Below are positions 4,532 through 16,133 of a stretch of 59,449 nucleotides of DNA, one piece after another. Source of the stretch: a virus (Duplodnaviria > Caudoviricetes); IMG/VR virus record IMGVR_UViG_3300016265_001128, positions 1-59,449 of that record; one strand, given 5' to 3'. The translations under genes were made by a program, and so were the position numbers. The stretch's first letter is position 1; each line of letters begins with the position of its first letter. The notes under the pieces are model-generated. The model was given only the letters and a program-made list of their open reading frames with translations, did no database searches and was not told the origin of the DNA.

Positions 4532-4719
4532 GCGTTCCCGATATTGGCGTCCACGGTGTCAAGGCCATTCGCATCTTGACGCAGCGCTATATGTTGCAAC
4601 CATCTTCGTCTCAATTTAGCGTAACAAAGATTTTTGTTGATACTGGAGAAGGCGTTGTACTTGAGCTGCGCTTGCATCACGACAGCGGCCTGAATATCAT
4701 CTCCGGACAAAAGCTGTGA
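4528..4719 (+). CDS. Small hypothetical protein
   Basis: Coupled ORF with AAGGA RBS. Confidence 0.55.
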   Translation: MSVPDIGVHGVKAIRILTQRYMLQPSSSQFSVTKIFVDTGEGVVLELRLHHDSGLNIISGQKL

Positions 4720-5162
4720 CCCGCATTAACTGCGTTCCCGTCGAGTCGCTATGTGATCAGCATTTGCTGGCGGAATACCGCGAGCTGCCCCGAGTCTTTG
4801 GCTTGGTGACAGCCGCGGTTAAGCGCGGCGAACGGCCGGACGACCCCAGAAACCCAAAGACATATACGCTGGGATCAGGTCACGTGCGGTTCTTTTACCC
4901 GCGATTGTTTTGGCTGAACGTCCGGCAAGATCAGATCGTCACAGAAATGTTCTGGCGTGGCTTCAAGCCGCAGTTCACAGACAGCTTGTGGAGTCAATTC
5001 AACGAGGCCATCCCCTTCAAAACCGGCTGGTGGGGGGTCTGGGTTCCCTCTGAGGCAGACATCGCCCTCAACCAAGCCCGCATCAACGAACGACTGCCAG
5101 CCAAGGCGCGGTGGTCTTATCCAGCTGGGAGGAAACAAGAGTGCAGCGCTACGACCCAATGA
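4716..5162 (+). CDS. denV: Pyrimidine-dimer DNA glycosylase / endonuclease V (T4 DenV-like)
   Basis: MTRIN...DQHLLAEYRELPRVF and LGSGHVRFFY match T4 DenV catalytic motifs (Thr2, Glu23). Confidence 0.92.
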   Translation: MTRINCVPVESLCDQHLLAEYRELPRVFGLVTAAVKRGERPDDPRNPKTYTLGSGHVRFFYPRLFWLNVRQDQIVTEMFWRGFKPQFTDSLWSQFNEAIPFKTGWWGVWVPSEADIALNQARINERLPAKARWSYPAGRKQECSATTQ

Positions 5163-6396: not shown

Positions 6397-6461
6397 CTCC
6401 GTATCTTTTAAGCTGACCTTTTGGGATAATGAACCTTCTCTCTTGTAGAGCGAGGTTTACC

Positions 6462-7412
6462 ATGAAAGCCAAAACCATCCGCGCAACCTTGCGGAAAAAG
6501 GTTAATGACTGGCTTGAGTCGATCGACGACCCAGTCGTGAGAGAAATTGCCTCCAAGCAGACAATCGTCACCGGTGGCAGCATTGCCTCGATGCTGCTTA
6601 AGGAGCCGGTCAATGACTACGATATCTATTTCTTGACCAAGGACGCCGCCAAGGCAGTGGCCGAATACTACGTCAGCCGGTTCAAGCCAAAGACGGTCAG
6701 CGGGATCCCGGCAAATATCTGCGTCTTCGACGACCCCGCTGACGGTCTGATCAAGATCGTCGTTCAGTCTGCCGGCATTGCGTCAGAAGCCGGCACGGCT
6801 AAGCCGTATCAATACTTCGAAAGCTCGTCAAGCGACGTTGCCGCCGGCGAGTATGTTCAAGACATCATTCTTGGGGGCGAAAACAATGTTGACGCGCAAG
6901 ACGACATGGAAGAGCTGGCTCCTCAGGACGACAGCCCTGACAAACCCAAGTACCGTCCCGTATTCCTATCCACGAACGCCATCACGCTCTCGGGCCAAAT
7001 CCAAATCATCATCCGCTTCTTCGGCGAAGCGGACAAGATCCACGAAAACTTCGACTTCGTCCACTGCACAAACTACTGGTGCAGCTGGAACGACGAGCTG
7101 ACCCTGCGGCAACCAGCCCTTGAGTCGCTGTTAGCCAAAGAGTTGCGCTATGTCGGCAGCAAGTACCCCGTTTGTTCCGTCATCCGGCTGCGCAAGTTCA
7201 TCAAGCGGAACTGGACGATCAACGCCGGCCAAATCCTGAAGATGCTGCTGCAGGTTTCTGAGCTTGATCTGACGGATCCGAAGGTTCTGCAGGACCAGCT
7301 GGTCGGCGTCGACGCTGCCTACTTCTGCGAGCTGATGACGAAGGTTAAGGCCAATGATCCGGACAAGGTCAACTCCGCCTACCTTGTCGAAATCATCGAC
7401 AGGATGTTCTAA
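6462..7412 (+). CDS. Pol-beta-superfamily nucleotidyltransferase-like protein
   Basis: TGGSIASMLL.E.VNDYDIYF (GG/S + DxD) and FDFVHC; ATG 6462 with GAGG RBS. Confidence 0.7.
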   Translation: MKAKTIRATLRKKVNDWLESIDDPVVREIASKQTIVTGGSIASMLLKEPVNDYDIYFLTKDAAKAVAEYYVSRFKPKTVSGIPANICVFDDPADGLIKIVVQSAGIASEAGTAKPYQYFESSSSDVAAGEYVQDIILGGENNVDAQDDMEELAPQDDSPDKPKYRPVFLSTNAITLSGQIQIIIRFFGEADKIHENFDFVHCTNYWCSWNDELTLRQPALESLLAKELRYVGSKYPVCSVIRLRKFIKRNWTINAGQILKMLLQVSELDLTDPKVLQDQLVGVDAAYFCELMTKVKANDPDKVNSAYLVEIIDRMF

Positions 7413-7859: not shown

Positions 7860-7943
7860 ACGCCAATCTGAATGCGCCCCCGCCAGATTGGCGTTAAAGA
7901 ACCCCGCAGCTTCCCCCTTTCCCCGGCTGCGGGGTTTTCTTTT
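7860..7943 (+). terminator. Tandem hairpins ending in an intrinsic terminator
   Basis: acgccaatctg..cagattggcgt, then aaccccgcagc..gctgcggggtt followed by a T-rich tail. Confidence 0.75.
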
Positions 7944-8023: not shown

Positions 8024-8221
8024 ATGGCTAAGTTCTTTCTAGCCACTGGCGTTATTGTTTGGTCTATTAACGCCTACCTGATTTTGTTTGAATTTCTCTC
8101 AAGGCCTACGTGGTGGCGCTTTACGCTGCTGTGTCTAACTGTGCTTTTTACGCACTTTACGGCCCTCGTGTGGCGTGAACTCTATAACCGGGAGACTGAA
8201 AATGGCCAATGCCAGCGGTAG
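8024..8221 (+). CDS. Small two-TM membrane protein
   Basis: AAGGAGG RBS; TATAAT at 7980; two hydrophobic helices. Confidence 0.65.
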   Translation: MAKFFLATGVIVWSINAYLILFEFLSRPTWWRFTLLCLTVLFTHFTALVWRELYNRETENGQCQR

Positions 8222-9071
8222 AAAGGTGGACACAACCCATCTTTCTTGGGAACAGACGGCCGAACGGCTGATCTTCCACAGGGATACACAGGCTCACTTC
8301 ATGCGGTGGAGCCATGTGCTCAAGTACCTCCAAAACTCAAAACATCGGGGCGAAGCGCGGGTCCTTGAACTCGGCTGCGGCAAGGAGCTGCCGTTGCCCC
8401 GGCTGCTGTACAGCAACAAGTGCGTGCCGAAGGCCTACTGCGGCGTCGATTACCGCAAGAACCTTGACCGGCCTGAAATGTTGGCAAAGGTTATCGAGTC
8501 CGGCAAATTCAATTTCAAGCTTTTGCCCAGCCAAGATGCGGCGACCGTCTCTAAGGAGCAAATCGGCTTTACGCCAGACGTGATTGTCAGCTTCGAGTGC
8601 ATCGAGCACGTCGAGCCGCTTCACGCCAGGAACATTTTGCTCAACGCCCGCTACCTGCTGGCGACCGGCGGCGTGATGTTCTTGTCCACGCCCTGCTACG
8701 ACGCAAATGTCGGCGCGGCCGATAACCACGTCAGCGAAATCACCTACCAAGCGCTCGGCTCCCTGCTGGAAGATCTGGGCTTCACTATTGACGGGGTCTG
8801 GGGCACTTTTGCCTCTATCCGCGACTATGAAACTGCCCTTGCTAAGCAGTACGGGAAAGCCGGCACCGATATCTTCAATAAGCTCCGGGAATATTATGAC
8901 ACAAACATCCTCGCCAACGTCTTTGCCCCCCTCTTCCCCGAGCACAGCCGAAACGCCCTTTGGCAGCTCTCCTACGACCCACAAACCAGCCTCGATCGAC
9001 GGTACCCTCCCCTTGCCGACGTTAAAGGACCCTGGACAAGCAGCGCCGCCTGGGCAACTCTTGCCGGCTAA
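8202..9071 (+). CDS. Class I SAM-dependent methyltransferase (not a canonical DNA MTase)
   Basis: VLELGCG motif I, GVD motif II, SFECIEHV and LSTP; no PC or DPPY motif. Confidence 0.85.
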   Translation: MANASGRKVDTTHLSWEQTAERLIFHRDTQAHFMRWSHVLKYLQNSKHRGEARVLELGCGKELPLPRLLYSNKCVPKAYCGVDYRKNLDRPEMLAKVIESGKFNFKLLPSQDAATVSKEQIGFTPDVIVSFECIEHVEPLHARNILLNARYLLATGGVMFLSTPCYDANVGAADNHVSEITYQALGSLLEDLGFTIDGVWGTFASIRDYETALAKQYGKAGTDIFNKLREYYDTNILANVFAPLFPEHSRNALWQLSYDPQTSLDRRYPPLADVKGPWTSSAAWATLAG

Positions 9072-9474
9072 ACACGTCGGCTATTCGCCGTTCAGTTACT
9101 TCGAGGCTGTCGCGTCGTTCCACATCCGCTTTGGCCTAGAGTACAATGGCCCAGGGCGGTTCTTGTCTGACGAGTCCGAAGAGCTGGAAGCCTTTCGGGT
9201 CAAGTTCCTCTATGAGGAACTGGAAGAATACGTCGAAGCCCTAGCCATGGCAAATAAGGCTCAAGCCCTCGACGCGTTGATCGACTTGATCTACGTAGCC
9301 CTAGGCAACGCCTATCTCCACGGTTTCAAGTTCGACGAAGGCTTCTGGCGAGTGCACGAAGCCAACATGGCAAAGGTTCGCGCTGAACGGAAGGGCGACA
9401 GCAAGCGCGGTACCACGTATGATATCGTCAAGCCGGCAGGCTGGACGGCTCCAGACCTTGGAGATTTGGTATGA
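9061..9474 (+). CDS. MazG-like nucleoside triphosphate pyrophosphohydrolase
   Basis: EELEEY...DALIDLIYVALG...VHEANMAK..KPAGW; start taken as the in-frame TTG overlapping the MTase end (uncertain). Confidence 0.85.
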   Translation: MPAKHVGYSPFSYFEAVASFHIRFGLEYNGPGRFLSDESEELEAFRVKFLYEELEEYVEALAMANKAQALDALIDLIYVALGNAYLHGFKFDEGFWRVHEANMAKVRAERKGDSKRGTTYDIVKPAGWTAPDLGDLV

Positions 9475-10472
9475 CCATCAGAGGCATCATCGTTCTAGAT
9501 GGGCCTGACGCATCTGGCAAGTCAACGCTTGCCAAGACGATGCAGGAACTCTACGGCGCCAAGATACTTCATGCCACCTACCGCTTTAAAAACAACATGT
9601 TTGCCTACCACACGGCAATCTTGAAAAAGGCTATTGCGGAAAGCCAAAAAGGTTTGGTTGTCATTGACCGCCTGTGGCTCAGCGAACAGGTCTACGCCAA
9701 CGTTTTTCGCGGGGGTAGCAAGTGGCCGCTTGCCGGTCGCTTTATCGATCGAATGCTCCTCAGGTTTGGGGCGTTGAACGTCATCTGCCTGCCATCGGCG
9801 GTCACGGTTTCTGTAGAAAACCACCGCAAAAACCTCGATCCCAGCCACCCGTACGATGACGATAAAGTCCGTGAGCTTTACGCCGGTTATGACGCGGCTT
9901 GGGGACGCCTGAAGTATCGACACGACTATGCTCGCTATAGCTTTGACAAGGACGGACAAAACACTTACGATTACGCGGACTACTTGGTCGTTCGGCTGAT
10001 GCAAGTTCAAGCCCTGCAACCGAATGACCTAGACGCCAGGCAGTGGCCGGAATTTCGCAACTTTGGAGGTTCGGTCAAATTGTCAAAGACGCTGATCGTA
10101 GGCGAACGGTCCAACCCAAAGTGGAACAGCGTCAACTGGCCGTTCTACGAGCACGGGAACTCAAGCCTATTTCTAGCAAAGGCGCTAGAAACGATTGGCG
10201 CCGGCGAACCATCCCTATGCTTTATGAACGCTGTAGAAGGCGGCCGTTTCCAAAACACTACTGAACTTTGGATTAGTCGTCTCGCTGAAACCAAGCGGGT
10301 GGTCTGCCTCGGCAACGTGGCCTATCGTACTGTCCGTCGGCTTGTGCCTGGAACGAAGCGAGTCAGGTTAGTTCCGCATCCGGCGTACTACCAGCGGTTT
10401 AAGGCCGCCGACGCCGTATCCTACGAGCGACTTCTTTGGGAGGCTATCAGTGACATACCATACGGCGACTGA
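9471..10472 (+). CDS. dNMP-kinase domain fused to a uracil-DNA-glycosylase-like domain
   Basis: N-terminal LDGPDASGKST and IDRLWLSEQVY; C-terminal LIVGER..., FMNA, VVCLGNVA, PHP pattern of the UDG superfamily. Confidence 0.8.
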   Translation: MTIRGIIVLDGPDASGKSTLAKTMQELYGAKILHATYRFKNNMFAYHTAILKKAIAESQKGLVVIDRLWLSEQVYANVFRGGSKWPLAGRFIDRMLLRFGALNVICLPSAVTVSVENHRKNLDPSHPYDDDKVRELYAGYDAAWGRLKYRHDYARYSFDKDGQNTYDYADYLVVRLMQVQALQPNDLDARQWPEFRNFGGSVKLSKTLIVGERSNPKWNSVNWPFYEHGNSSLFLAKALETIGAGEPSLCFMNAVEGGRFQNTTELWISRLAETKRVVCLGNVAYRTVRRLVPGTKRVRLVPHPAYYQRFKAADAVSYERLLWEAISDIPYGD

Positions 10473-11289
10473 CGCTTGGGTATACCTTTTGACTAACGTC
10501 GCAATTCTTGGCGAACGGCAAAAGCCCAGGGGACTCGAGACTCGAGAATTGCTGGGATACCAATTCCGAGTAGATATGGAGTATCCAGTGGTCAACGTCA
10601 AGGCCCGTGAATTAGGCTTTCGCTTCCTTGCGGCAGAAGCCTTCTGGATCCTAAATGGCGACAACCGCGTCAGCACCATCTCACCGTTTTCCAAAGCCAT
10701 CGCCAATTTCAGTGACGATGGCGTTTATTTTGCCGGCGCCTATGGACCTCGCGTGGTTGATCAATTGAGTTATGTCGTCGATCAGCTCGTTGCTGACCCC
10801 TCGACGCGTCAAGCCGTCTTAACGATCTGGCGACCCAACCCCAGGCCTAGTAAAGACATCCCCTGCACGATTGCCTGCCAGTGGCTTATTAGACCACACT
10901 GGGAAACCAAGGAGCCGGCGCTGTACTGCATTGACACGATGCGCTCGTCCGACGCGTGGCTGGGGGTGCCGTACGACGTCTTTAATTTCAGCCAGCTAAG
11001 CTTGCGCATTGCTCTGCTGCTGCGCAACCGCGGACTCCTAGTACGGCTAGGTGGTTTGGTTTTGCAGGCCGGCTCTCAACACCTGTACGAAAAGGATTGG
11101 GAAGCAGCTAGGAAAATCATCACGGGTCCTGGCCTTGATCCTGAGCCAGACCTCAAAGTCAATCCGCATTTCAAAGTGTCGGAATTTGCCGACCCCGAAA
11201 CGCATCTTGACTTCCTCAGCCACGCTCTTAACGACGGCAGATCTTGGTTTGAAGCGGCGTGGCCTGCTGAAGAAGGTTCACAAAAATGA
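10450..11289 (+). CDS. Thymidylate-synthase-family enzyme, predicted dCMP methylase/hydroxymethylase
   Basis: PRG, AYGPR, TRQAV, DIPC (catalytic Cys), MRSSDAWLGVPYD and HLYE; Asp at the E. coli TS Asn177 position. Confidence 0.85.
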   Translation: MTYHTATDAWVYLLTNVAILGERQKPRGLETRELLGYQFRVDMEYPVVNVKARELGFRFLAAEAFWILNGDNRVSTISPFSKAIANFSDDGVYFAGAYGPRVVDQLSYVVDQLVADPSTRQAVLTIWRPNPRPSKDIPCTIACQWLIRPHWETKEPALYCIDTMRSSDAWLGVPYDVFNFSQLSLRIALLLRNRGLLVRLGGLVLQAGSQHLYEKDWEAARKIITGPGLDPEPDLKVNPHFKVSEFADPETHLDFLSHALNDGRSWFEAAWPAEEGSQK

Positions 11290-11771
11290 CAAGCCGTATT
11301 TCCTTTGACGAGTACGCCATGAACTTGGCGTTCGTCGCCTCGTGGCGTGGAACCTGCGCTCGCCGACAAGTTGGCGCTGTATTAGTCAATCGCCGAAACC
11401 ACATTTTGGCCATTGGCTACAATGGGGTGGCTTCGGGAGTTGAGCATTGTCGTGGCTCTAACCCGCTATGCCCCGGGGCTCAGCTACCGTCTGGTACCGG
11501 TCTAGATCTTTGCGGAGCCATCCACGCCGAACAGAATGCGCTGCTGCAGTGTCGTGACGTCTACGACATAAAAACGGTTTACTGTACACTCAGCCCATGC
11601 TTACATTGCGTCAAGCTTCTGATGAACACCGGAGCTGAGCGCATTGTATTTGCCACGCCCTACGCCCATATTGAAAGCGAAGGCTTGTGGGTGTCAAGTC
11701 GAGCCGGGAGGCAGTGGGATTACTTCGACGCCTTCCTGCCGCCCGTCATAGGAAGAGCCGAGCTTGTCTAA
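11286..11771 (+). CDS. dCMP deaminase family protein
   Basis: C.RRQVGAV, GYNG, HAEQNA and SPCLHC Zn motifs. Confidence 0.92.
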   Translation: MTSRISFDEYAMNLAFVASWRGTCARRQVGAVLVNRRNHILAIGYNGVASGVEHCRGSNPLCPGAQLPSGTGLDLCGAIHAEQNALLQCRDVYDIKTVYCTLSPCLHCVKLLMNTGAERIVFATPYAHIESEGLWVSSRAGRQWDYFDAFLPPVIGRAELV

Positions 11772-13671
11772 GCAAAAGTTTATACCTGGGCAATTGTCGC
11801 TCTTTAAGCCCCAAACGACGTGGACACCGCCGCAGCCGTCAGACTGGCCTGATTTCACCAAGGCCAGTCTGATTTCCATTGACACGGAAACAAAAGATCC
11901 AGAGCTTAAGACCAAGGGACCTGGGTTTGCCCGGGGGAAAGCTCATATTGTCGGCGTAAGCCTGGCAGCGGAAGGCCTAGGCTCGATCTACTTGCCCATC
12001 CGCCACGCCGGAGGCGGCAATGTTGACGAGCAACGGGCGCTTGAGTACTTACGACACACCCTCAAAACGCCTGTTCCTAAGGTGGGCGCAAATATCATAT
12101 ACGACCTTGAGGCCTTGCAGGCCGAAGGGGTCGAGGTAGGCGGTAGTGCCTACGACGTTCAGACAGCGGATTCACTGCTAGACGAGACTCAAAACTCTTA
12201 TTCTCTCGGGGCTATTGCTAAGCGTCGACTAGGCGAAAGTAAAGACGAGTCCATGCTTCAGGCTGGCGCTGAAGCATTTGGTGTCAACGCCAAAGACGGC
12301 ATGTGGCAACTGCCGTCTGGTTATGTTGGACAATACGCTGAGACGGACGCCTTTCTGCCGCTGGCCATTTTCAAGGTTCAGCAGCCGCTTCTTGAGGCTG
12401 AAGAAATGAGTCAAGTCTTTGATCTAGAGACAAGACTTATCCGAGCCGTACTGGCCATGCGGTTTAGGGGAGTCCGTGTCGATCTAGACCGAGCCGATCG
12501 TCTGCGCAAAAGGCTTCAGGCTGAAGAAGAAGCCCTGTTGACTGAGATGAAAAAGCAAGCAGGGATTCCGTTCGAGGTGACTCAGCCGCGTTCGATGGGG
12601 CGTGTGTACGATCAGCTTGGTATCCCGTATTTCCTCACGCCGAAGTCAGGAGAACCGTCGTTCACTGCTGAATACTTGAAGGCTCAGGTCGACCCATTTA
12701 GTGCGATGTTCCTCAAGGTCAAGCGTCTCCAAAAAGCTAGACGAGACTTCATTGACGGCTTGATCTTTAACTTTGTCACAGACAAGGGACGCATACACCC
12801 AACGTTCAGAGCTTCTAGAACGGAAGATGGCGGGGCTCGCTCTGGTCGATTTTCGGGCGAACTACCCAACCTTCAACAGGTACCAGCTAAAGACGACGCT
12901 TACGGCCCTGAGATAAGATCCTGCATTATCCCAGAAGACGGCTGTCAGTGGGGAGCCCTTGACTATAGCCAGCAAGAGCCTCGTGTCACAGTTCATTTGG
13001 CCTACAAGCTCAAACTGCGAGGTTCCGCCATTGCTCGGCAGCGTTACATCGACGACCCAAGCACTGACTACCACGCCATGGTCGCCTCGCTGGCCGGCAT
13101 TGAACGCAAGCCTGCGAAGACTTTGAACCTCGGGGCGGCTTACGGCATGGGCATTAGCAAAATGATGGTGCAACTTGGCATGGACCCTGAAAAAGCTAAG
13201 GCTACTTACGAGGCCTACCACCAAGCTATCCCGTACGTAAAGGAGGCCGGTCAAATCTGTTCTAATCTTGCGCAAGAACGAGGCTGGATAAAAACGTTGC
13301 TCGGTCGTCGTCGTCGGTTTAATTTGTGGGAACCGAGGGATCGTAACAAGGGCGAGGCAATTATTCCGACGACCTTAGAGCAGGCTAGGCTTCTTTGGCC
13401 TGATCGACCCATTAGGCGGGCGTTCACTCACAAGGCCTTGAATGCCGCCGTTCAGGGGGGTTCTGCAGACATGGTAAAGAAGGCTATGGTTGACATCCAC
13501 GAGGCTGGCCTTAATACAATGCACTTAACCATGCACGACGAACTTGGCGTTTCGCTAGAGTCTGATGCCGTAAAAGATAAAATCGTTCAGCTCATGCTTG
13601 ATTGTGTAAAGCTTGAGGTTCCACTACGCGTAGACGCCGAGGTTGGGCCTAGCTGGGGAGAAGCCAAGTGA
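11764..13671 (+). CDS. Family A DNA polymerase with 3'-5' exonuclease domain
   Basis: DTET exo I, YAETD exo III, SGRFS..PNLQQ, DYSQQEPR, K..NLG..YG, QG..AD and HDE. Confidence 0.95.
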   Translation: MSKQKFIPGQLSLFKPQTTWTPPQPSDWPDFTKASLISIDTETKDPELKTKGPGFARGKAHIVGVSLAAEGLGSIYLPIRHAGGGNVDEQRALEYLRHTLKTPVPKVGANIIYDLEALQAEGVEVGGSAYDVQTADSLLDETQNSYSLGAIAKRRLGESKDESMLQAGAEAFGVNAKDGMWQLPSGYVGQYAETDAFLPLAIFKVQQPLLEAEEMSQVFDLETRLIRAVLAMRFRGVRVDLDRADRLRKRLQAEEEALLTEMKKQAGIPFEVTQPRSMGRVYDQLGIPYFLTPKSGEPSFTAEYLKAQVDPFSAMFLKVKRLQKARRDFIDGLIFNFVTDKGRIHPTFRASRTEDGGARSGRFSGELPNLQQVPAKDDAYGPEIRSCIIPEDGCQWGALDYSQQEPRVTVHLAYKLKLRGSAIARQRYIDDPSTDYHAMVASLAGIERKPAKTLNLGAAYGMGISKMMVQLGMDPEKAKATYEAYHQAIPYVKEAGQICSNLAQERGWIKTLLGRRRRFNLWEPRDRNKGEAIIPTTLEQARLLWPDRPIRRAFTHKALNAAVQGGSADMVKKAMVDIHEAGLNTMHLTMHDELGVSLESDAVKDKIVQLMLDCVKLEVPLRVDAEVGPSWGEAK

Positions 13672-14092: not shown

Positions 14093-14755
14093 ATGAAAAC
14101 AACACTAGCGGCAATACGCGCCGAATCGCCATGCACAGATGGCTGGAAAAAGTTGATAAACCATCTCGGCGGGGTCAATCTTTATGGGCTGACCACTCCG
14201 CTTGACGTTGCCACCATCCTCGAAAGCAACGGCTTTGATGACGCGCTATGGGTTCTCGATAAAGCCTGCGGACCCGATGGCACGCGCCTTTGTCACGTCT
14301 TCGCCTGCGACGTGGCGGAAAGAGTTTTGCCCATTTTCGAGCGGGCCAGCTCGAATGACACTCGGCCTCGTAAAGTTATAGAGATCAAACGGCTGTGGAT
14401 TGCCGGTGAAGCGACGGACGAAGAATTATTTGCTGCCTGGGAAGCTGCCTGGGAAGCCGCCAGGGCCCCTGCCAGGGCCGCCGCCAGGGCCGCCGCCAGG
14501 GCCGCTGGCTGGGCCGCTGGCTGGGAAGCTGCCTGGGACGCCTGGGAAGCCTGGGACGCTGCAAGTGCCGCCGCCTGGGACGCTGCCTGGGACGCTGCCA
14601 GGGACGCTGGCTGGGCCGCTGCAAGTGCCGCCGCCTGGGACGCTGCCTGGGACGCTGCCAGGGACGCTGACTGGGACGCTGACTGGGACGCTGCCTGGGC
14701 CGCTGAACGCAATTGGCAAATAGCGCACCTGCACGAGATGCTAAAGGGGGAGTGA
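14093..14755 (+). CDS. Phage protein with Ala/Trp-rich (AAWD) repeats
   Basis: PC.DGW.KL, ILESNG.DDALW, FACD.AE.VL, D.RPR, then a tandem repeat. Confidence 0.8.
   Translation: MKTTLAAIRAESPCTDGWKKLINHLGGVNLYGLTTPLDVATILESNGFDDALWVLDKACGPDGTRLCHVFACDVAERVLPIFERASSNDTRPRKVIEIKRLWIAGEATDEELFAAWEAAWEAARAPARAAARAAARAAGWAAGWEAAWDAWEAWDAASAAAWDAAWDAARDAGWAAASAAAWDAAWDAARDADWDADWDAAWAAERNWQIAHLHEMLKGE
14430..14705 (+). repeat. Coding tandem repeat, about 12-bp unit GCTGCCTGGGAC with a 60-bp higher-order duplication
   Basis: Directly visible; block gctgcaagtgccgccgcctgggacgctgcc at about 14558 and 14618. Confidence 0.9.
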
Positions 14756-15104: not shown

Positions 15105-15185
15105 AACAATGACCGATTACGACCAGATCGCTGCGGGCTTATGCGACACCCGCGCCCCGAAGTATCGAAAGAGGAGGCTGGAGCC

Positions 15186-16133
15186 TTGAGACCGTTGTGT
15201 ATCTATCACGGCAACTGCGCGGACGGCTTTGGTGCTGCTTGGGTTGTTCGAAAAGCCCTTGCTGGCAAAGTCGATTTTCATGCTGGCGTATACCAGAACC
15301 CGCCGCCGGACGTGTCCGGCCGTGACGTAATTTTGGTCGATTTCAGCTACAAGCGTCCGGTGCTGGTGAACATGCTGCGCTCTAGTGACATTCAGCAGGC
15401 GAACACGATCCTTATTCTGGATCATCACAAAACGGCGGCGACTGATCTGGCGGAGATTGAGCCTCCAGAGAAAGGTTTGGGCTATGACCCAGGCCGCTGG
15501 CGCCGCGAATGGGAAAGCTGGGCCGTCTGGCCGGTGCGCGCGGTGTTCGACATGGAACGATCCGGCGCAATGATATCGTGGGATTACTTCTTTCCCGGCC
15601 AGGAACCGCCAGCACTGCTGCGCCACATCCAGGACCGCGACCTATGGCTCTTCAAGCTGGACGGTACGCGAGAGATCCAGGCCAACCTATTCAGCTATCC
15701 CTATGACTTCGATGTCTGGGACAAGCTGATGGACATGGACGTGCAGACGCTGCGCATCGAGGGTGCCGCAATCGAGCGCAAGCACCACAAGGACATTGGC
15801 GAGCTAGTCGGTGTGACAAAGCGCCGCATGGTGCTCGGTGGTCATAACGTGCCCGTCGCCAATCTGCCCTACACCCTGACCAGTGACGCCGGCCACCTGA
15901 TGGCGGAGGGTGAGCCTTTTGCGGCCTGCTATTGGGACACGCCAGACGGGCGCGTCTTCTCCCTGCGATCCACGGATGAAGGGCTCGACGTGTCCGAGAT
16001 TGCCAAGAGCTACGGCGGCGGCGGGCATCGCAATGCTGCGGGCTTTCGCATGTCCATTGGCTGGGAAGGCGATGGGCGTCTATCAAGCTATGCGAACTGC
16101 TTGCAGCAGCCATCAGAAAGGGGGAGTGAATGA
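15186..16133 (+). CDS. DHH/DHHA1 family phosphoesterase
   Basis: YH.NCADG, VDFS, LDHHKT, D.DLW, SLRS and GGGGH.NAAGF; start may instead be 15141. Confidence 0.9.
   Translation: MRPLCIYHGNCADGFGAAWVVRKALAGKVDFHAGVYQNPPPDVSGRDVILVDFSYKRPVLVNMLRSSDIQQANTILILDHHKTAATDLAEIEPPEKGLGYDPGRWRREWESWAVWPVRAVFDMERSGAMISWDYFFPGQEPPALLRHIQDRDLWLFKLDGTREIQANLFSYPYDFDVWDKLMDMDVQTLRIEGAAIERKHHKDIGELVGVTKRRMVLGGHNVPVANLPYTLTSDAGHLMAEGEPFAACYWDTPDGRVFSLRSTDEGLDVSEIAKSYGGGGHRNAAGFRMSIGWEGDGRLSSYANCLQQPSERGSE

Follow-up and report, generated by a model that had tools for sequence, protein, structure and literature searches.

A widespread phage gene cassette links a predicted dCMP hydroxymethylase to a viral methyltransferase family

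A six-gene cassette in a complete phage genome

The IMG/VR record IMGVR_UViG_3300016265_001128 (Duplodnaviria; Caudoviricetes) covers a complete virus genome, its 59,449 bp bearing direct terminal repeats, and this whole stretch is referred to here as the window. Between positions 8202 and 13671 it carries a cassette of six plus-strand genes, translationally coupled and with ends overlapping by 4 to 23 nt. They encode a class I S-adenosylmethionine (SAM)-dependent methyltransferase (MTase), a MazG-like protein, a deoxynucleoside monophosphate (dNMP) kinase fused to a uracil-DNA glycosylase (UDG)-fold domain, a thymidylate synthase (TS) homolog, a deoxycytidine monophosphate (dCMP) deaminase and the DNA polymerase PolA (Table 1). 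A first-pass annotation made from the sequence had read this region as a cytosine-modification cassette with an unexplained MTase. The gene set that it listed, with all six genes overlapping on the plus strand, was confirmed in every particular. The MazG-like gene probably starts at the TTG codon at 9058, overlapping the stop codon of the MTase gene. An identical gene order was found in phages AXL3, PW916 and MW202510 and in dozens of IMG/VR contigs, a recurrence indicating that the arrangement is not due to chance. A megablast search of 50,697 phage records returned no DNA near-identical to the region. The core of the cassette belongs to a known kind, that of the T4 paradigm and the MetaGPA cassettes, and the MTase is the new element.

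Table 1. Genes and domains of the cassette: feature, position in the window, strand and supporting evidence
Class I SAM-dependent methyltransferase, 289 aa	8202..9071	+	PF13489 53.6 bits, cut-off 27, E 2.8e-14
MazG-like, PRA-PH family	9058..9474	+	PF01503 41.9 bits, cut-off 21.3, E 1.4e-10
dNMP kinase domain, residues 1-185 of 333-aa fusion	9471..10025	+	P-loop GPDASGKST
UDG-superfamily domain, residues 186-333 of 333-aa fusion	10026..10472	+	Foldseek, motifs
Thymidylate-synthase homolog, predicted dCMP hydroxymethylase	10450..11289	+	PF00303 78.6 bits, cut-off 24.3, E 5.6e-22
dCMP/dCTP deaminase family protein	11286..11771	+	PF00383 75.9 bits, cut-off 25, E 2.6e-21
PolA, family A with 3'-5' exonuclease domain	11764..13671	+	PF00476 E 6.2e-55; PF01612 E 4.5e-5

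The TS homolog has the residue signature of T4 dCMP hydroxymethylase

The TS homolog scored above the gathering threshold of PF00303, which places it in the TS superfamily, and its closest solved relative was the CMP 5-hydroxymethylase MilA (E 4e-21). It was aligned with E. coli ThyA, T4 gp42, Xp12 TS, RB69 gp48 and four relatives. The catalytic cysteine C146 and the phosphate-binding pair R166-S167 occupied invariant columns in this alignment. The protein contains RSSDAWLGVPYD, in which the final Asp takes the place of Asn177 in E. coli ThyA and corresponds to the Asp found in MilA, T4 gp42, Xp12 and RB69, confirming the residue on which the first-pass annotation had based its claim of dCMP specificity. 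The N177D exchange is reported to confer a preference for dCMP (Lee et al. 2026, PMC13326640), and Asp at this position makes a dCMP-directed TS homolog likely.

The same report, in its available text, connects residue 143 with the product formed: a bulky Leu143 goes with methyl products, whereas an acidic residue goes with hydroxymethyl products through water access. It describes D169N as the mark of 5-hydroxy-dCMP synthases, with Asn169 in each one tested (PMC13326640). The window homolog reads D143, C146, T147, D169 and D177, identical to T4 gp42 at all five positions, and the canonical Leu143, His147 and Asn177 of dUMP-specific TS are all substituted. Xp12 TS, which makes 5-methyl-dCMP, has N143 and P147. 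The alignment reproduced the assignments available in PMC13326640 for T4 (D143, D169, D177), RB69 (E143, N169, D177) and MilA. Asp143 lies in the motif KDIPC, three residues ahead of the catalytic Cys; HMMER opened a gap at this position in one pairwise alignment with a bacterial TS, and the ungapped register fits the published T4, RB69 and MilA assignments.

The homolog thus combines Asp at the N177 position with an acidic residue 143 and Asp169, the combination of a dCMP hydroxymethylase. It lacks the residues of an Xp12-type dCMP methyltransferase, having D143 and T147, and did not group with the Xp12 clade in a quick maximum-likelihood tree. The Asn169 of 5-hydroxy-dCMP synthases was also absent, Asp169 being present in the window protein and in all 72 complete MTase-linked homologs. 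Against the NCBIfam TS equivalog models the protein scored far below the cut-offs. In the tree, Xp12 TS joined canonical ThyA (Shimodaira-Hasegawa-like approximate likelihood ratio test, SH-aLRT, 98), T4 gp42 joined the MTase-linked TS homologs of loci L030 and L051 (SH-aLRT 100), and the window TS clade was separate (SH-aLRT 90). Because the D143/T147/D169/D177 signature equals that of T4 gp42 and differs from the N143/P147 of Xp12, a 5-hydroxymethyl product is favored over a 5-methyl product. Judged by these residues, the enzyme probably makes 5-hydroxymethyl-dCMP; 5-methyl-dCMP and 5-hydroxy-dCMP are less likely products. The first-pass annotation had left the choice between a methyl and a hydroxymethyl product, and the latter is favored here.

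As that annotation had also noted, no Asn-type ThyA or ThyX is visible: the 59,449 bp hold no second TS homolog and no ThyX. Two related loci encode a canonical ThyA (L143, H147, N177; L065:759-1589 and L071:383-1288) besides the D143/T147/D177 homolog, just as T4 has td as well as gene 42.

The methyltransferase belongs to a largely viral family

Searches with the MTase screened 1513 candidates, of which 827 were relatives at E<=1e-5, and located 271 stretches in IMG/VR. Its ESM Atlas clusters were nearly all viral and bore generic names or none, without a functional name among them. The AlphaFold2 model (predicted local distance difference test, pLDDT, 92) shows a Rossmann-type fold with strands alternating with helices. 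Motif I (ELGCG) is intact, with invariant G58 and G60, and strand 2 ends in a nearly invariant D83; motif I and Asp83 are read as the SAM-binding residues. The fold, motif I and the acidic residue of strand 2 together assign the protein to the class I SAM-dependent MTases.

The segment after strand 4 reads FECIEHVEP and conforms to the UbiG-type FExxEH. The (D/N/S)PP(Y/F/W) motif of DNA amino-MTases was absent from the sequence and from the family alignment, and the DNA cytosine-C5 MTase family PF00145 was not among the Pfam matches at E<=0.01. The earlier description of a SAM MTase without DNA-MTase motifs is thereby borne out, and so is the accompanying argument that folate-dependent C5 chemistry leaves such an enzyme unexplained. 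The family has motifs of its own, namely an N-terminal invariant His/Arg-rich helix HRDxxxHxxRWxH, YYDxN and SRNxLW.

Foldseek neighbors in the PDB were the small-molecule O-MTases StiD, StiE and RebM/AtmM, together with MitM, cap N7 MTases and CmoM, with template modeling (TM) scores of 0.41-0.57. CmoM, which methylates an oxygen of a pyrimidine C5 side chain in tRNA, had the top TM score listed (0.57). CmoM and UbiG share with the window MTase the Rossmann MTase fold and FExxEH after strand 4. However, identities of 11-18% and scores far below the family cut-offs leave membership in either family unsupported, and the three family-specific motifs occur in the viral family only. A profile search against the PDB returned weak matches to PKMT2, UbiG and HEN1 only. 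UbiG was the only named sequence family that the MTase touched (TIGR01983, E 6.5e-5; PDB UbiG, E about 2e-4).

The median isoelectric point (pI) of the family was 6.0, with 0 of 33 members above pI 8, and this acidic-to-neutral character weakly favors a soluble nucleotide over DNA as the substrate. No fused forms of the MTase were found at E<=1e-10 among proteins of 507-2000 aa, which is weak evidence. A complex prediction with two TS copies and the MTase gave a score of 0.00 and a mark of 0.32, and was used neither for nor against binding. A function as uracil-C5 methylase, converting dUMP to dTMP, was considered and dropped, as the sole nearly invariant Cys is C59 within motif I and no other is conserved. 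A search of open-access papers and bioRxiv found no published work on a methylated 5-hydroxymethylcytosine (5hmC) base or on this MTase family.

The methyltransferase is linked to the TS homolog across several gene orders

To examine the association of the two genes, two sets of loci were collected, 87 from viruses in which the MTase had a homolog at E<1e-20, and 80 that were TS-centred; at least 533 TS stretches were present in IMG/VR. The searches were alignment-based, single-sequence searches having given 6 MTase loci and 1 TS locus. The two sets share contigs, and the counts below refer to sequences, not to independent events.

A D177-type TS was found in 73 of the 87 MTase loci and lay within 3 kb in 68 of them, so that the co-occurrence check proposed with the first-pass annotation was strongly positive. 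Of the 14 MTase loci without a TS, 12 break off within 1.6 kb on the downstream side of the MTase, and only L070 and L088 are without one although 3 kb or more is available to either side. The reading D-C-T-D-D at the five diagnostic positions is shared by all 72 complete TS homologs of the MTase loci. Eight loci without a tblastn TS match (L012, L013, L016, L018, L019, L022, L027 and L030) nevertheless encode a divergent TS with the same signature. The adjacency of MTase and TS is kept across several TS clades and four gene orders: MTase-MazG-kinase-TS-deaminase in most loci, MazG-TS-MTase-deaminase in L030 and L051, kinase-MTase-TS in L005-L007, and kinase-TS-MTase in L082 and L085.

Among the TS-centred loci, 69 had at least 2.6 kb of upstream sequence; the MTase was present in 41 and absent from 28. 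MazG accompanied the MTase in 43/43 of the MTase-containing TS-centred loci. The 28 loci without MTase had MazG in 9 cases and the deaminase in 6, and consisted mostly of a minimal kinase and TS pair, as exemplified by Pelagibacter phage HTVC200P. The UDG-fold domain occurred in 30 of the 43 MTase-positive TS-centred loci and in none of the 28 MTase-negative loci whose upstream sequence was long enough, the remaining four cases being loci truncated upstream.

Several variants of the cassette were recorded alongside. In HTVC200P, a 157-aa 'hypothetical protein' (gp013, L095:5505-5978) lies directly 5' of the TS gene and is comparable in size and position to the short kinase of MTase-less IMG/VR loci. 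Three MTase-less cassettes of the same TS clade (L163:2826-3872, L175:2898-3953 and L164:1-1035) encode a PF00145 C5 methylase 5' of MazG, in the place of the window's MTase (E 7e-22 and 2e-30 in L163/L175). Cassettes of this type also encode a protein of 341-346 aa, unknown and without a Pfam match, between MazG and the kinase. A C5 methylase adjoining a dCMP hydroxymethylase in L163/L175-type cassettes is unexpected. In L131 and L159, MazG-like and kinase domains share one open reading frame (ORF; 351 and 323 aa) 5' of TS, a further sign that both act in one pathway. The 627-aa ThyX encoded at L133:2995-4875, 5' of a kinase-TS pair, includes a LAGLIDADG domain that probably represents an intein or the insertion of a homing endonuclease.

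The partner genes fit a cytosine-replacement pathway

The MazG-like protein matched phrog_671 (nucleotide pyrophosphohydrolase, E 3.5e-26) and belongs to the MazG/PRA-PH group; a candidate role as dCTPase is proposed. The deaminase contains the zinc motifs HAE (IHAEQ) and PCxxC (SPCLHC), which together with its PF00383 score place it in the dCMP deaminase family; it matched phrog_174 (E 2.2e-37) and is 32% identical to the Xp12 deaminase. PolA holds the same downstream position in most of the related loci.

For the kinase-UDG fusion, the Pfam matches of the window protein were below the cut-off for both domains, and an alignment of 30 homologs and a structure model (pLDDT 90) were used. Thymidylate_kin matched 26/30 family members at E<=0.01, the kinase domain gave a profile match to SPbeta YorR (2axp, E 2.5e-14), and Foldseek retrieved thymidylate kinases. 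With its P-loop and thymidylate-kinase-like fold, the domain is assigned to the dNMP kinases of thymidylate kinase/YorR type. The 148-residue C-terminal domain retrieved the family-4 UDGs 1l9g, 1vk2 and 1ui1 and UdgX 6iob by Foldseek. Its motifs A, VG(E/D)..N.K, and B, HP(S/A/Q)..RF, are conserved, with G211, H303, P304 and F310 invariant; the Pfam UDG score, 17.6 bits, falls short of the cut-off of 24.3. The domain is about 45 residues shorter than the solved enzymes. No Cys that could correspond to the 4Fe-4S ligands of family-4 UDGs was present in the invariant or nearly invariant columns of the 30-homolog alignment. According to the model and motifs, the domain is a UDG-fold module, and membership in family 4 is not claimed. 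The 'kinase/UDG' label of the first-pass annotation therefore stands as a description of the two folds (Foldseek, YorR profile), any glycosylase activity being conjectural. The module may recognize a pyrimidine, or be a glycosylase policing uracil, 5-hydroxymethyluracil or unmodified bases. The fusion is a second undescribed element of the cassette.

An assignment of the kinase and UDG-like domains to thymidine hypermodification, as a DNA kinase and base-exchange pair of the aminoglutamyl- or putrescinyl-thymine type, was considered and rejected. The kinase matches dNMP kinases, and the PaMx11 glycinyltransferase was described as a novel fold in a paper naming neither UDG nor glycosylase. Taken together, MazG, kinase, deaminase and PolA form a context of the cytosine-replacement type, as the annotation had proposed.

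Cultured relatives and the restriction resistance of AXL3

Stenotrophomonas phage AXL3 and Pseudoxanthomonas phage PW916 encode the MTase, NTP pyrophosphohydrolase, kinase(-UDG), TS and deaminase in unchanged order. The available text of their papers annotates these genes as a thymidylate pathway, and AXL3 additionally has ThyX (PMC7504290). The residue signature of the TS homolog contradicts this annotation and corrects it, as far as the assignment can be made from sequence.

AXL3 DNA was reported to withstand 35/37 restriction enzymes; the two that did cut, TasI and Tru1I, are A/T-only cutters, and KpnI and Eam1105I were among those without effect (PMC7504290). Both enzymes cut, although partially, the DNA of AXL1, an Xp12-like phage of the 5-methylcytosine (5mC) type from the same laboratory (PMC9206674), and Xp12 5mC DNA was completely cut by KpnI and AhdI (PMC7653180). 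On these published data, the modification of AXL3 is probably not plain 5mC.

Comparison with known systems

The T4 pathway comprises the dCTPase gp56, gp42, the dNMP kinase gp1 and the deaminase cd, followed by glucosyltransferases, and has the same logic and enzyme classes as the cassette. As with beta-gt beside gene 42 in T4, the putative tailoring enzyme is encoded next to the predicted hydroxymethylase. The cassette differs in several parts: its pyrophosphatase is of the MazG/PRA-PH type without detectable sequence similarity to gp56, its kinase resembles YorR and thymidylate kinases and carries a fused UDG-fold domain, and its tailoring enzyme would be a SAM methyltransferase rather than a glycosyltransferase. 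In addition, the window phage has no TS for dTMP, and its polymerase is of family A. A Pfam scan of 29 ORFs of the window found no glycosyltransferase and no DNA methyltransferase.

A neighborhood of TS, PRA-PH, deaminase and PolA has been reported as enriched in cytosine-modified metavirome contigs (PMC8670742; bioRxiv 10.1101/2024.12.05.627091, available text). In one such cassette a carbamoyltransferase acts on 5hmC, including the conversion of 5hmdCTP to 5-carbamoyloxymethylcytosine (PMC8670742). As far as these sources describe them, the MetaGPA cassettes have TS(Asp177), PRA-PH, dCMP deaminase and PolA in common with the window, and their extra enzyme decorates the 5-hydroxymethyl group and is able to act on the triphosphate. 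In contrast to the carbamoyltransferase cassettes, the extra enzyme of the window is a Methyltransf_23-type MTase. By analogy with the carbamoyltransferase, the MTase would be the tailoring enzyme here. The word 'methyltransferase' has 0 occurrences in the main text of PMC8670742, and the available text of bioRxiv 10.1101/2024.12.05.627091 mentions DNA MTases only, such as Dcm and DNMT3a.

Xp12, DLP4 and AXL1 resemble the window in that a TS with Asp at the N177 position adjoins a gene of the dCMP deaminase family. However, Xp12 TS, with N143/P147, groups with canonical ThyA, which the window TS does not. Moreover, the neighbors of Xp12-type TS are dihydrofolate reductase and a haloacid dehalogenase (HAD) hydrolase, and an MTase of the window's family is absent from Xp12, DLP4 and AXL1. 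The similarity to Xp12/DLP4-like cassettes that the first-pass annotation had pointed to thus holds for the pair of TS and deaminase and fails for the rest. A difference is also seen in the DNA, that of 5mC phages being reported as cut by KpnI and AhdI/Eam1105I and that of AXL3 as uncut. The 5-hydroxy-dCMP synthases of RB69 and DLP3 combine N177D with an acidic residue 143, and a group is transferred to the new oxygen (PMC13326640). They carry D169N, whereas the window enzyme keeps D169, and their tailoring is described as arabinosylation on DNA.

A parallel outside phages is the bacimethrin gene cluster, which combines a CMP hydroxymethylase (a TS homolog), a methyltransferase, a kinase and a glycosidase, and in which the methyltransferase acts on a 5-hydroxymethylcytosine compound. 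Bacimethrin is a bacterial small-molecule antivitamin, and the methylation takes place at O2 of the free base.

A predicted pathway and its alternatives

We put close to an even chance on the cassette encoding a T4-like, pre-replicative cytosine replacement via 5hmC with a linked methyl-tailoring step, the product being a prediction. By analogy with T4 gp56, the MazG-like enzyme would hydrolyze dCTP to dCMP, which would both keep out canonical cytosine and feed the pathway. The TS homolog, with methylene-tetrahydrofolate, would then convert dCMP to 5-hydroxymethyl-dCMP, as its residue signature suggests. The YorR/thymidylate-kinase-like domain would phosphorylate the modified dNMP, host NDP kinase would supply the triphosphate, and the adjacent PolA would incorporate it. 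Since the phage has neither ThyA nor ThyX of its own, the deaminase may provide dUMP to the host ThyA. The first-pass annotation had derived dTMP by deamination. With a 5hm-type TS, deamination would give 5hmdU, not dT, and this inference loses its basis; supply of dUMP to the host enzyme, as with T4 cd, appears more likely.

The substrate envisaged for the SAM MTase is 5hmC, either as a nucleotide or within DNA. Of all steps, the position that receives the methyl is the least certain; the likeliest reaction would be O-methylation of the 5-hydroxymethyl group. Its product, 5-methoxymethylcytosine, is the most plausible one, and is put forward tentatively. In a broader and equally speculative reading, the window phage, AXL3 and PW916, along with uncultured phages of podovirus- and siphovirus-like type in the hundreds, might replace cytosine with a methylated form of 5hmC that is synthesized as a nucleotide ahead of replication. 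The base would be the work of a virus-specific O-MTase together with the dCMP hydroxymethylase, and the kinase-fused UDG-fold domain would be specialized for it; we regard this as possible, though somewhat doubtful.

The alternative that survives best, rather unlikely but to be taken seriously, is plain 5hmC. Here 5hmdCTP would be used as in T4, and the MTase would methylate a protein, RNA, metabolite or host factor and travel with the cassette for regulatory or lineage reasons. Several observations favor this alternative or count against a methyl-tailoring step. In the PDB profile search the MTase matched a protein lysine MTase best (E 3.7e-6), with UbiG and the RNA 2'-O-MTase HEN1 next, and its structural matches are generic (TM 0.41-0.57). 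The 28/69 close TS homologs that occur without an MTase indicate that the TS does not need one. The MTase of L070 and L088 has no TS in the ~4.3 to 6.4 kb fetched on either side, and the shared ancestry of contigs means that the co-occurrence counts are not independent. T4gt DNA, which contains 5hmC, was reported to resist 81.9% of the type II enzymes tested (PMC7653180), so the AXL3 phenotype also fits plain 5hmC and needs no extra group. Caution also applies to the hydroxymethyl assignment on which both readings depend. It leans on the five-residue signature and on a tree from a quick search only, in which long branches were flagged, and W80 of ThyA is replaced by Ile in the window TS clade, unlike in T4 gp42. 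On the other hand, plain 5hmC does not readily account for the MTase-TS linkage over four gene orders and several TS clades, with direct adjacency in L030, L051, L082 and L085. The almost exclusively viral distribution of the MTase family, the overlap of the genes as in one translational unit, and the carbamoyltransferase precedent (PMC8670742, available text) likewise speak for tailoring.

An Xp12-like 5mC pathway, in which the TS would methylate dCMP, the deaminase would turn part of the 5-methyl-dC pool into dT nucleotides, and the MTase would add a second methyl group (e.g. at N4), is considered unlikely. Asp at the N177 position, the lack of ThyA and ThyX and the deaminase adjoining the TS are all consistent with it. 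Moreover, some such deaminases are reported to prefer 5mdCTP, and 5/7 tested partner TS make 5mdCMP (bioRxiv 10.1101/2024.12.05.627091). The preprint's idea that the deaminase makes dTTP from 5mdCTP fits the dTMP route of the first-pass annotation, but does not transfer to a 5hm-type TS. Residues Asp143 and Thr147 are those of T4 gp42 and not the Asn and Pro of Xp12, whose enzyme groups with canonical ThyA apart from the window clade. The MTase is missing from Xp12, DLP4 and AXL1 and lacks the amino-MTase motif (D/N/S)PP(Y/F/W), and AXL3 DNA is reported to resist KpnI and Eam1105I, to which the DNA of the 5mC phages AXL1 and Xp12 is sensitive.

A 5-hydroxycytosine route appears improbable. The TS would be a flavin-dependent 5-hydroxy-dCMP synthase, and a UbiG-like MTase would O-methylate the ring hydroxyl to 5-methoxycytosine. 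N177D TS homologs can indeed hydroxylate dCMP (PMC13326640, available text), and the only named sequence families reached by the MTase are the UbiG-type phenol O-MTases. Yet every 5-hydroxy-dCMP synthase tested in that report has Asn169, whereas the window enzyme and all 72 complete MTase-linked homologs have Asp169.

Ordinary thymidylate supply, with deaminase, TS and kinase yielding dUMP, dTMP and dTDP for canonical DNA and with an unrelated MTase, agrees with the published AXL3 and PW916 annotations and with the thymidylate synthase label of Pfam and NCBIfam, but is very improbable given the replacement of Asn177, His147 and Leu143, the low NCBIfam equivalog scores, the additional canonical ThyA in L065 and L071 and ThyX in AXL3, and the reported resistance of AXL3 DNA to every G/C-containing enzyme tested.

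Overall, the interpretation of the first-pass annotation is partly supported: the dCMP-type TS, the pathway context, the MTase motifs and the linkage hold, whereas the Xp12/DLP4 analogy and the dTMP route are weakened.

Other features of the window

A terminator-like GC-rich hairpin followed by a T-run lies at 7921-7934 (+), just 5' of a small membrane-protein ORF (8024-8221) and the cassette. It may mark the start of the transcription unit; terminator-like sites across the region are at chance level, and consensus sites within the cassette unit also occur at chance frequency. PADLOC defense-system models gave weak partial matches only, for the MTase and the kinase, and nothing was concluded from them. 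Upstream, the product of 4716-5162 (+) is homologous to pyrimidine-dimer DNA glycosylases of the T4 endonuclease V type (PF03013, E 1.9e-13), and 6429-7412 (+) encodes 327 aa that belong to phrog_4400 (E 2e-67), a group of unknown function. The N-terminus of this 327-aa protein (TGGS...DYDIYF) resembles, judged by eye alone, a polymerase-beta-type nucleotidyltransferase motif. Downstream, a 220-aa protein at 14093-14755 (+) has a long Ala/Trp/Asp repeat (AAWDAAWDAARDA...) and matches phrog_18326, of unknown function. A DHH/DHHA1 phosphoesterase (15141-16133, +; phrog_4771, E 1e-107) is encoded a few genes 3' of PolA.

Implications

Base replacement is a main way for phages to evade restriction and CRISPR, and it also supplies enzymes to epigenetic sequencing. 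The system described here is widespread and tightly conserved. Since AXL3 and PW916 are cultured carriers, and AXL3 DNA is known to be strongly restriction-resistant, the question of what the MTase does is directly testable. If it methylates 5hmC, the cassette would provide a new natural DNA base and a new family of nucleotide-modifying enzymes, and the MTase could serve as a 5hmC-specific labeling tool. Should the base be 5-methoxymethylcytosine, it would be a natural DNA base for which no report was found in open-access papers and bioRxiv.

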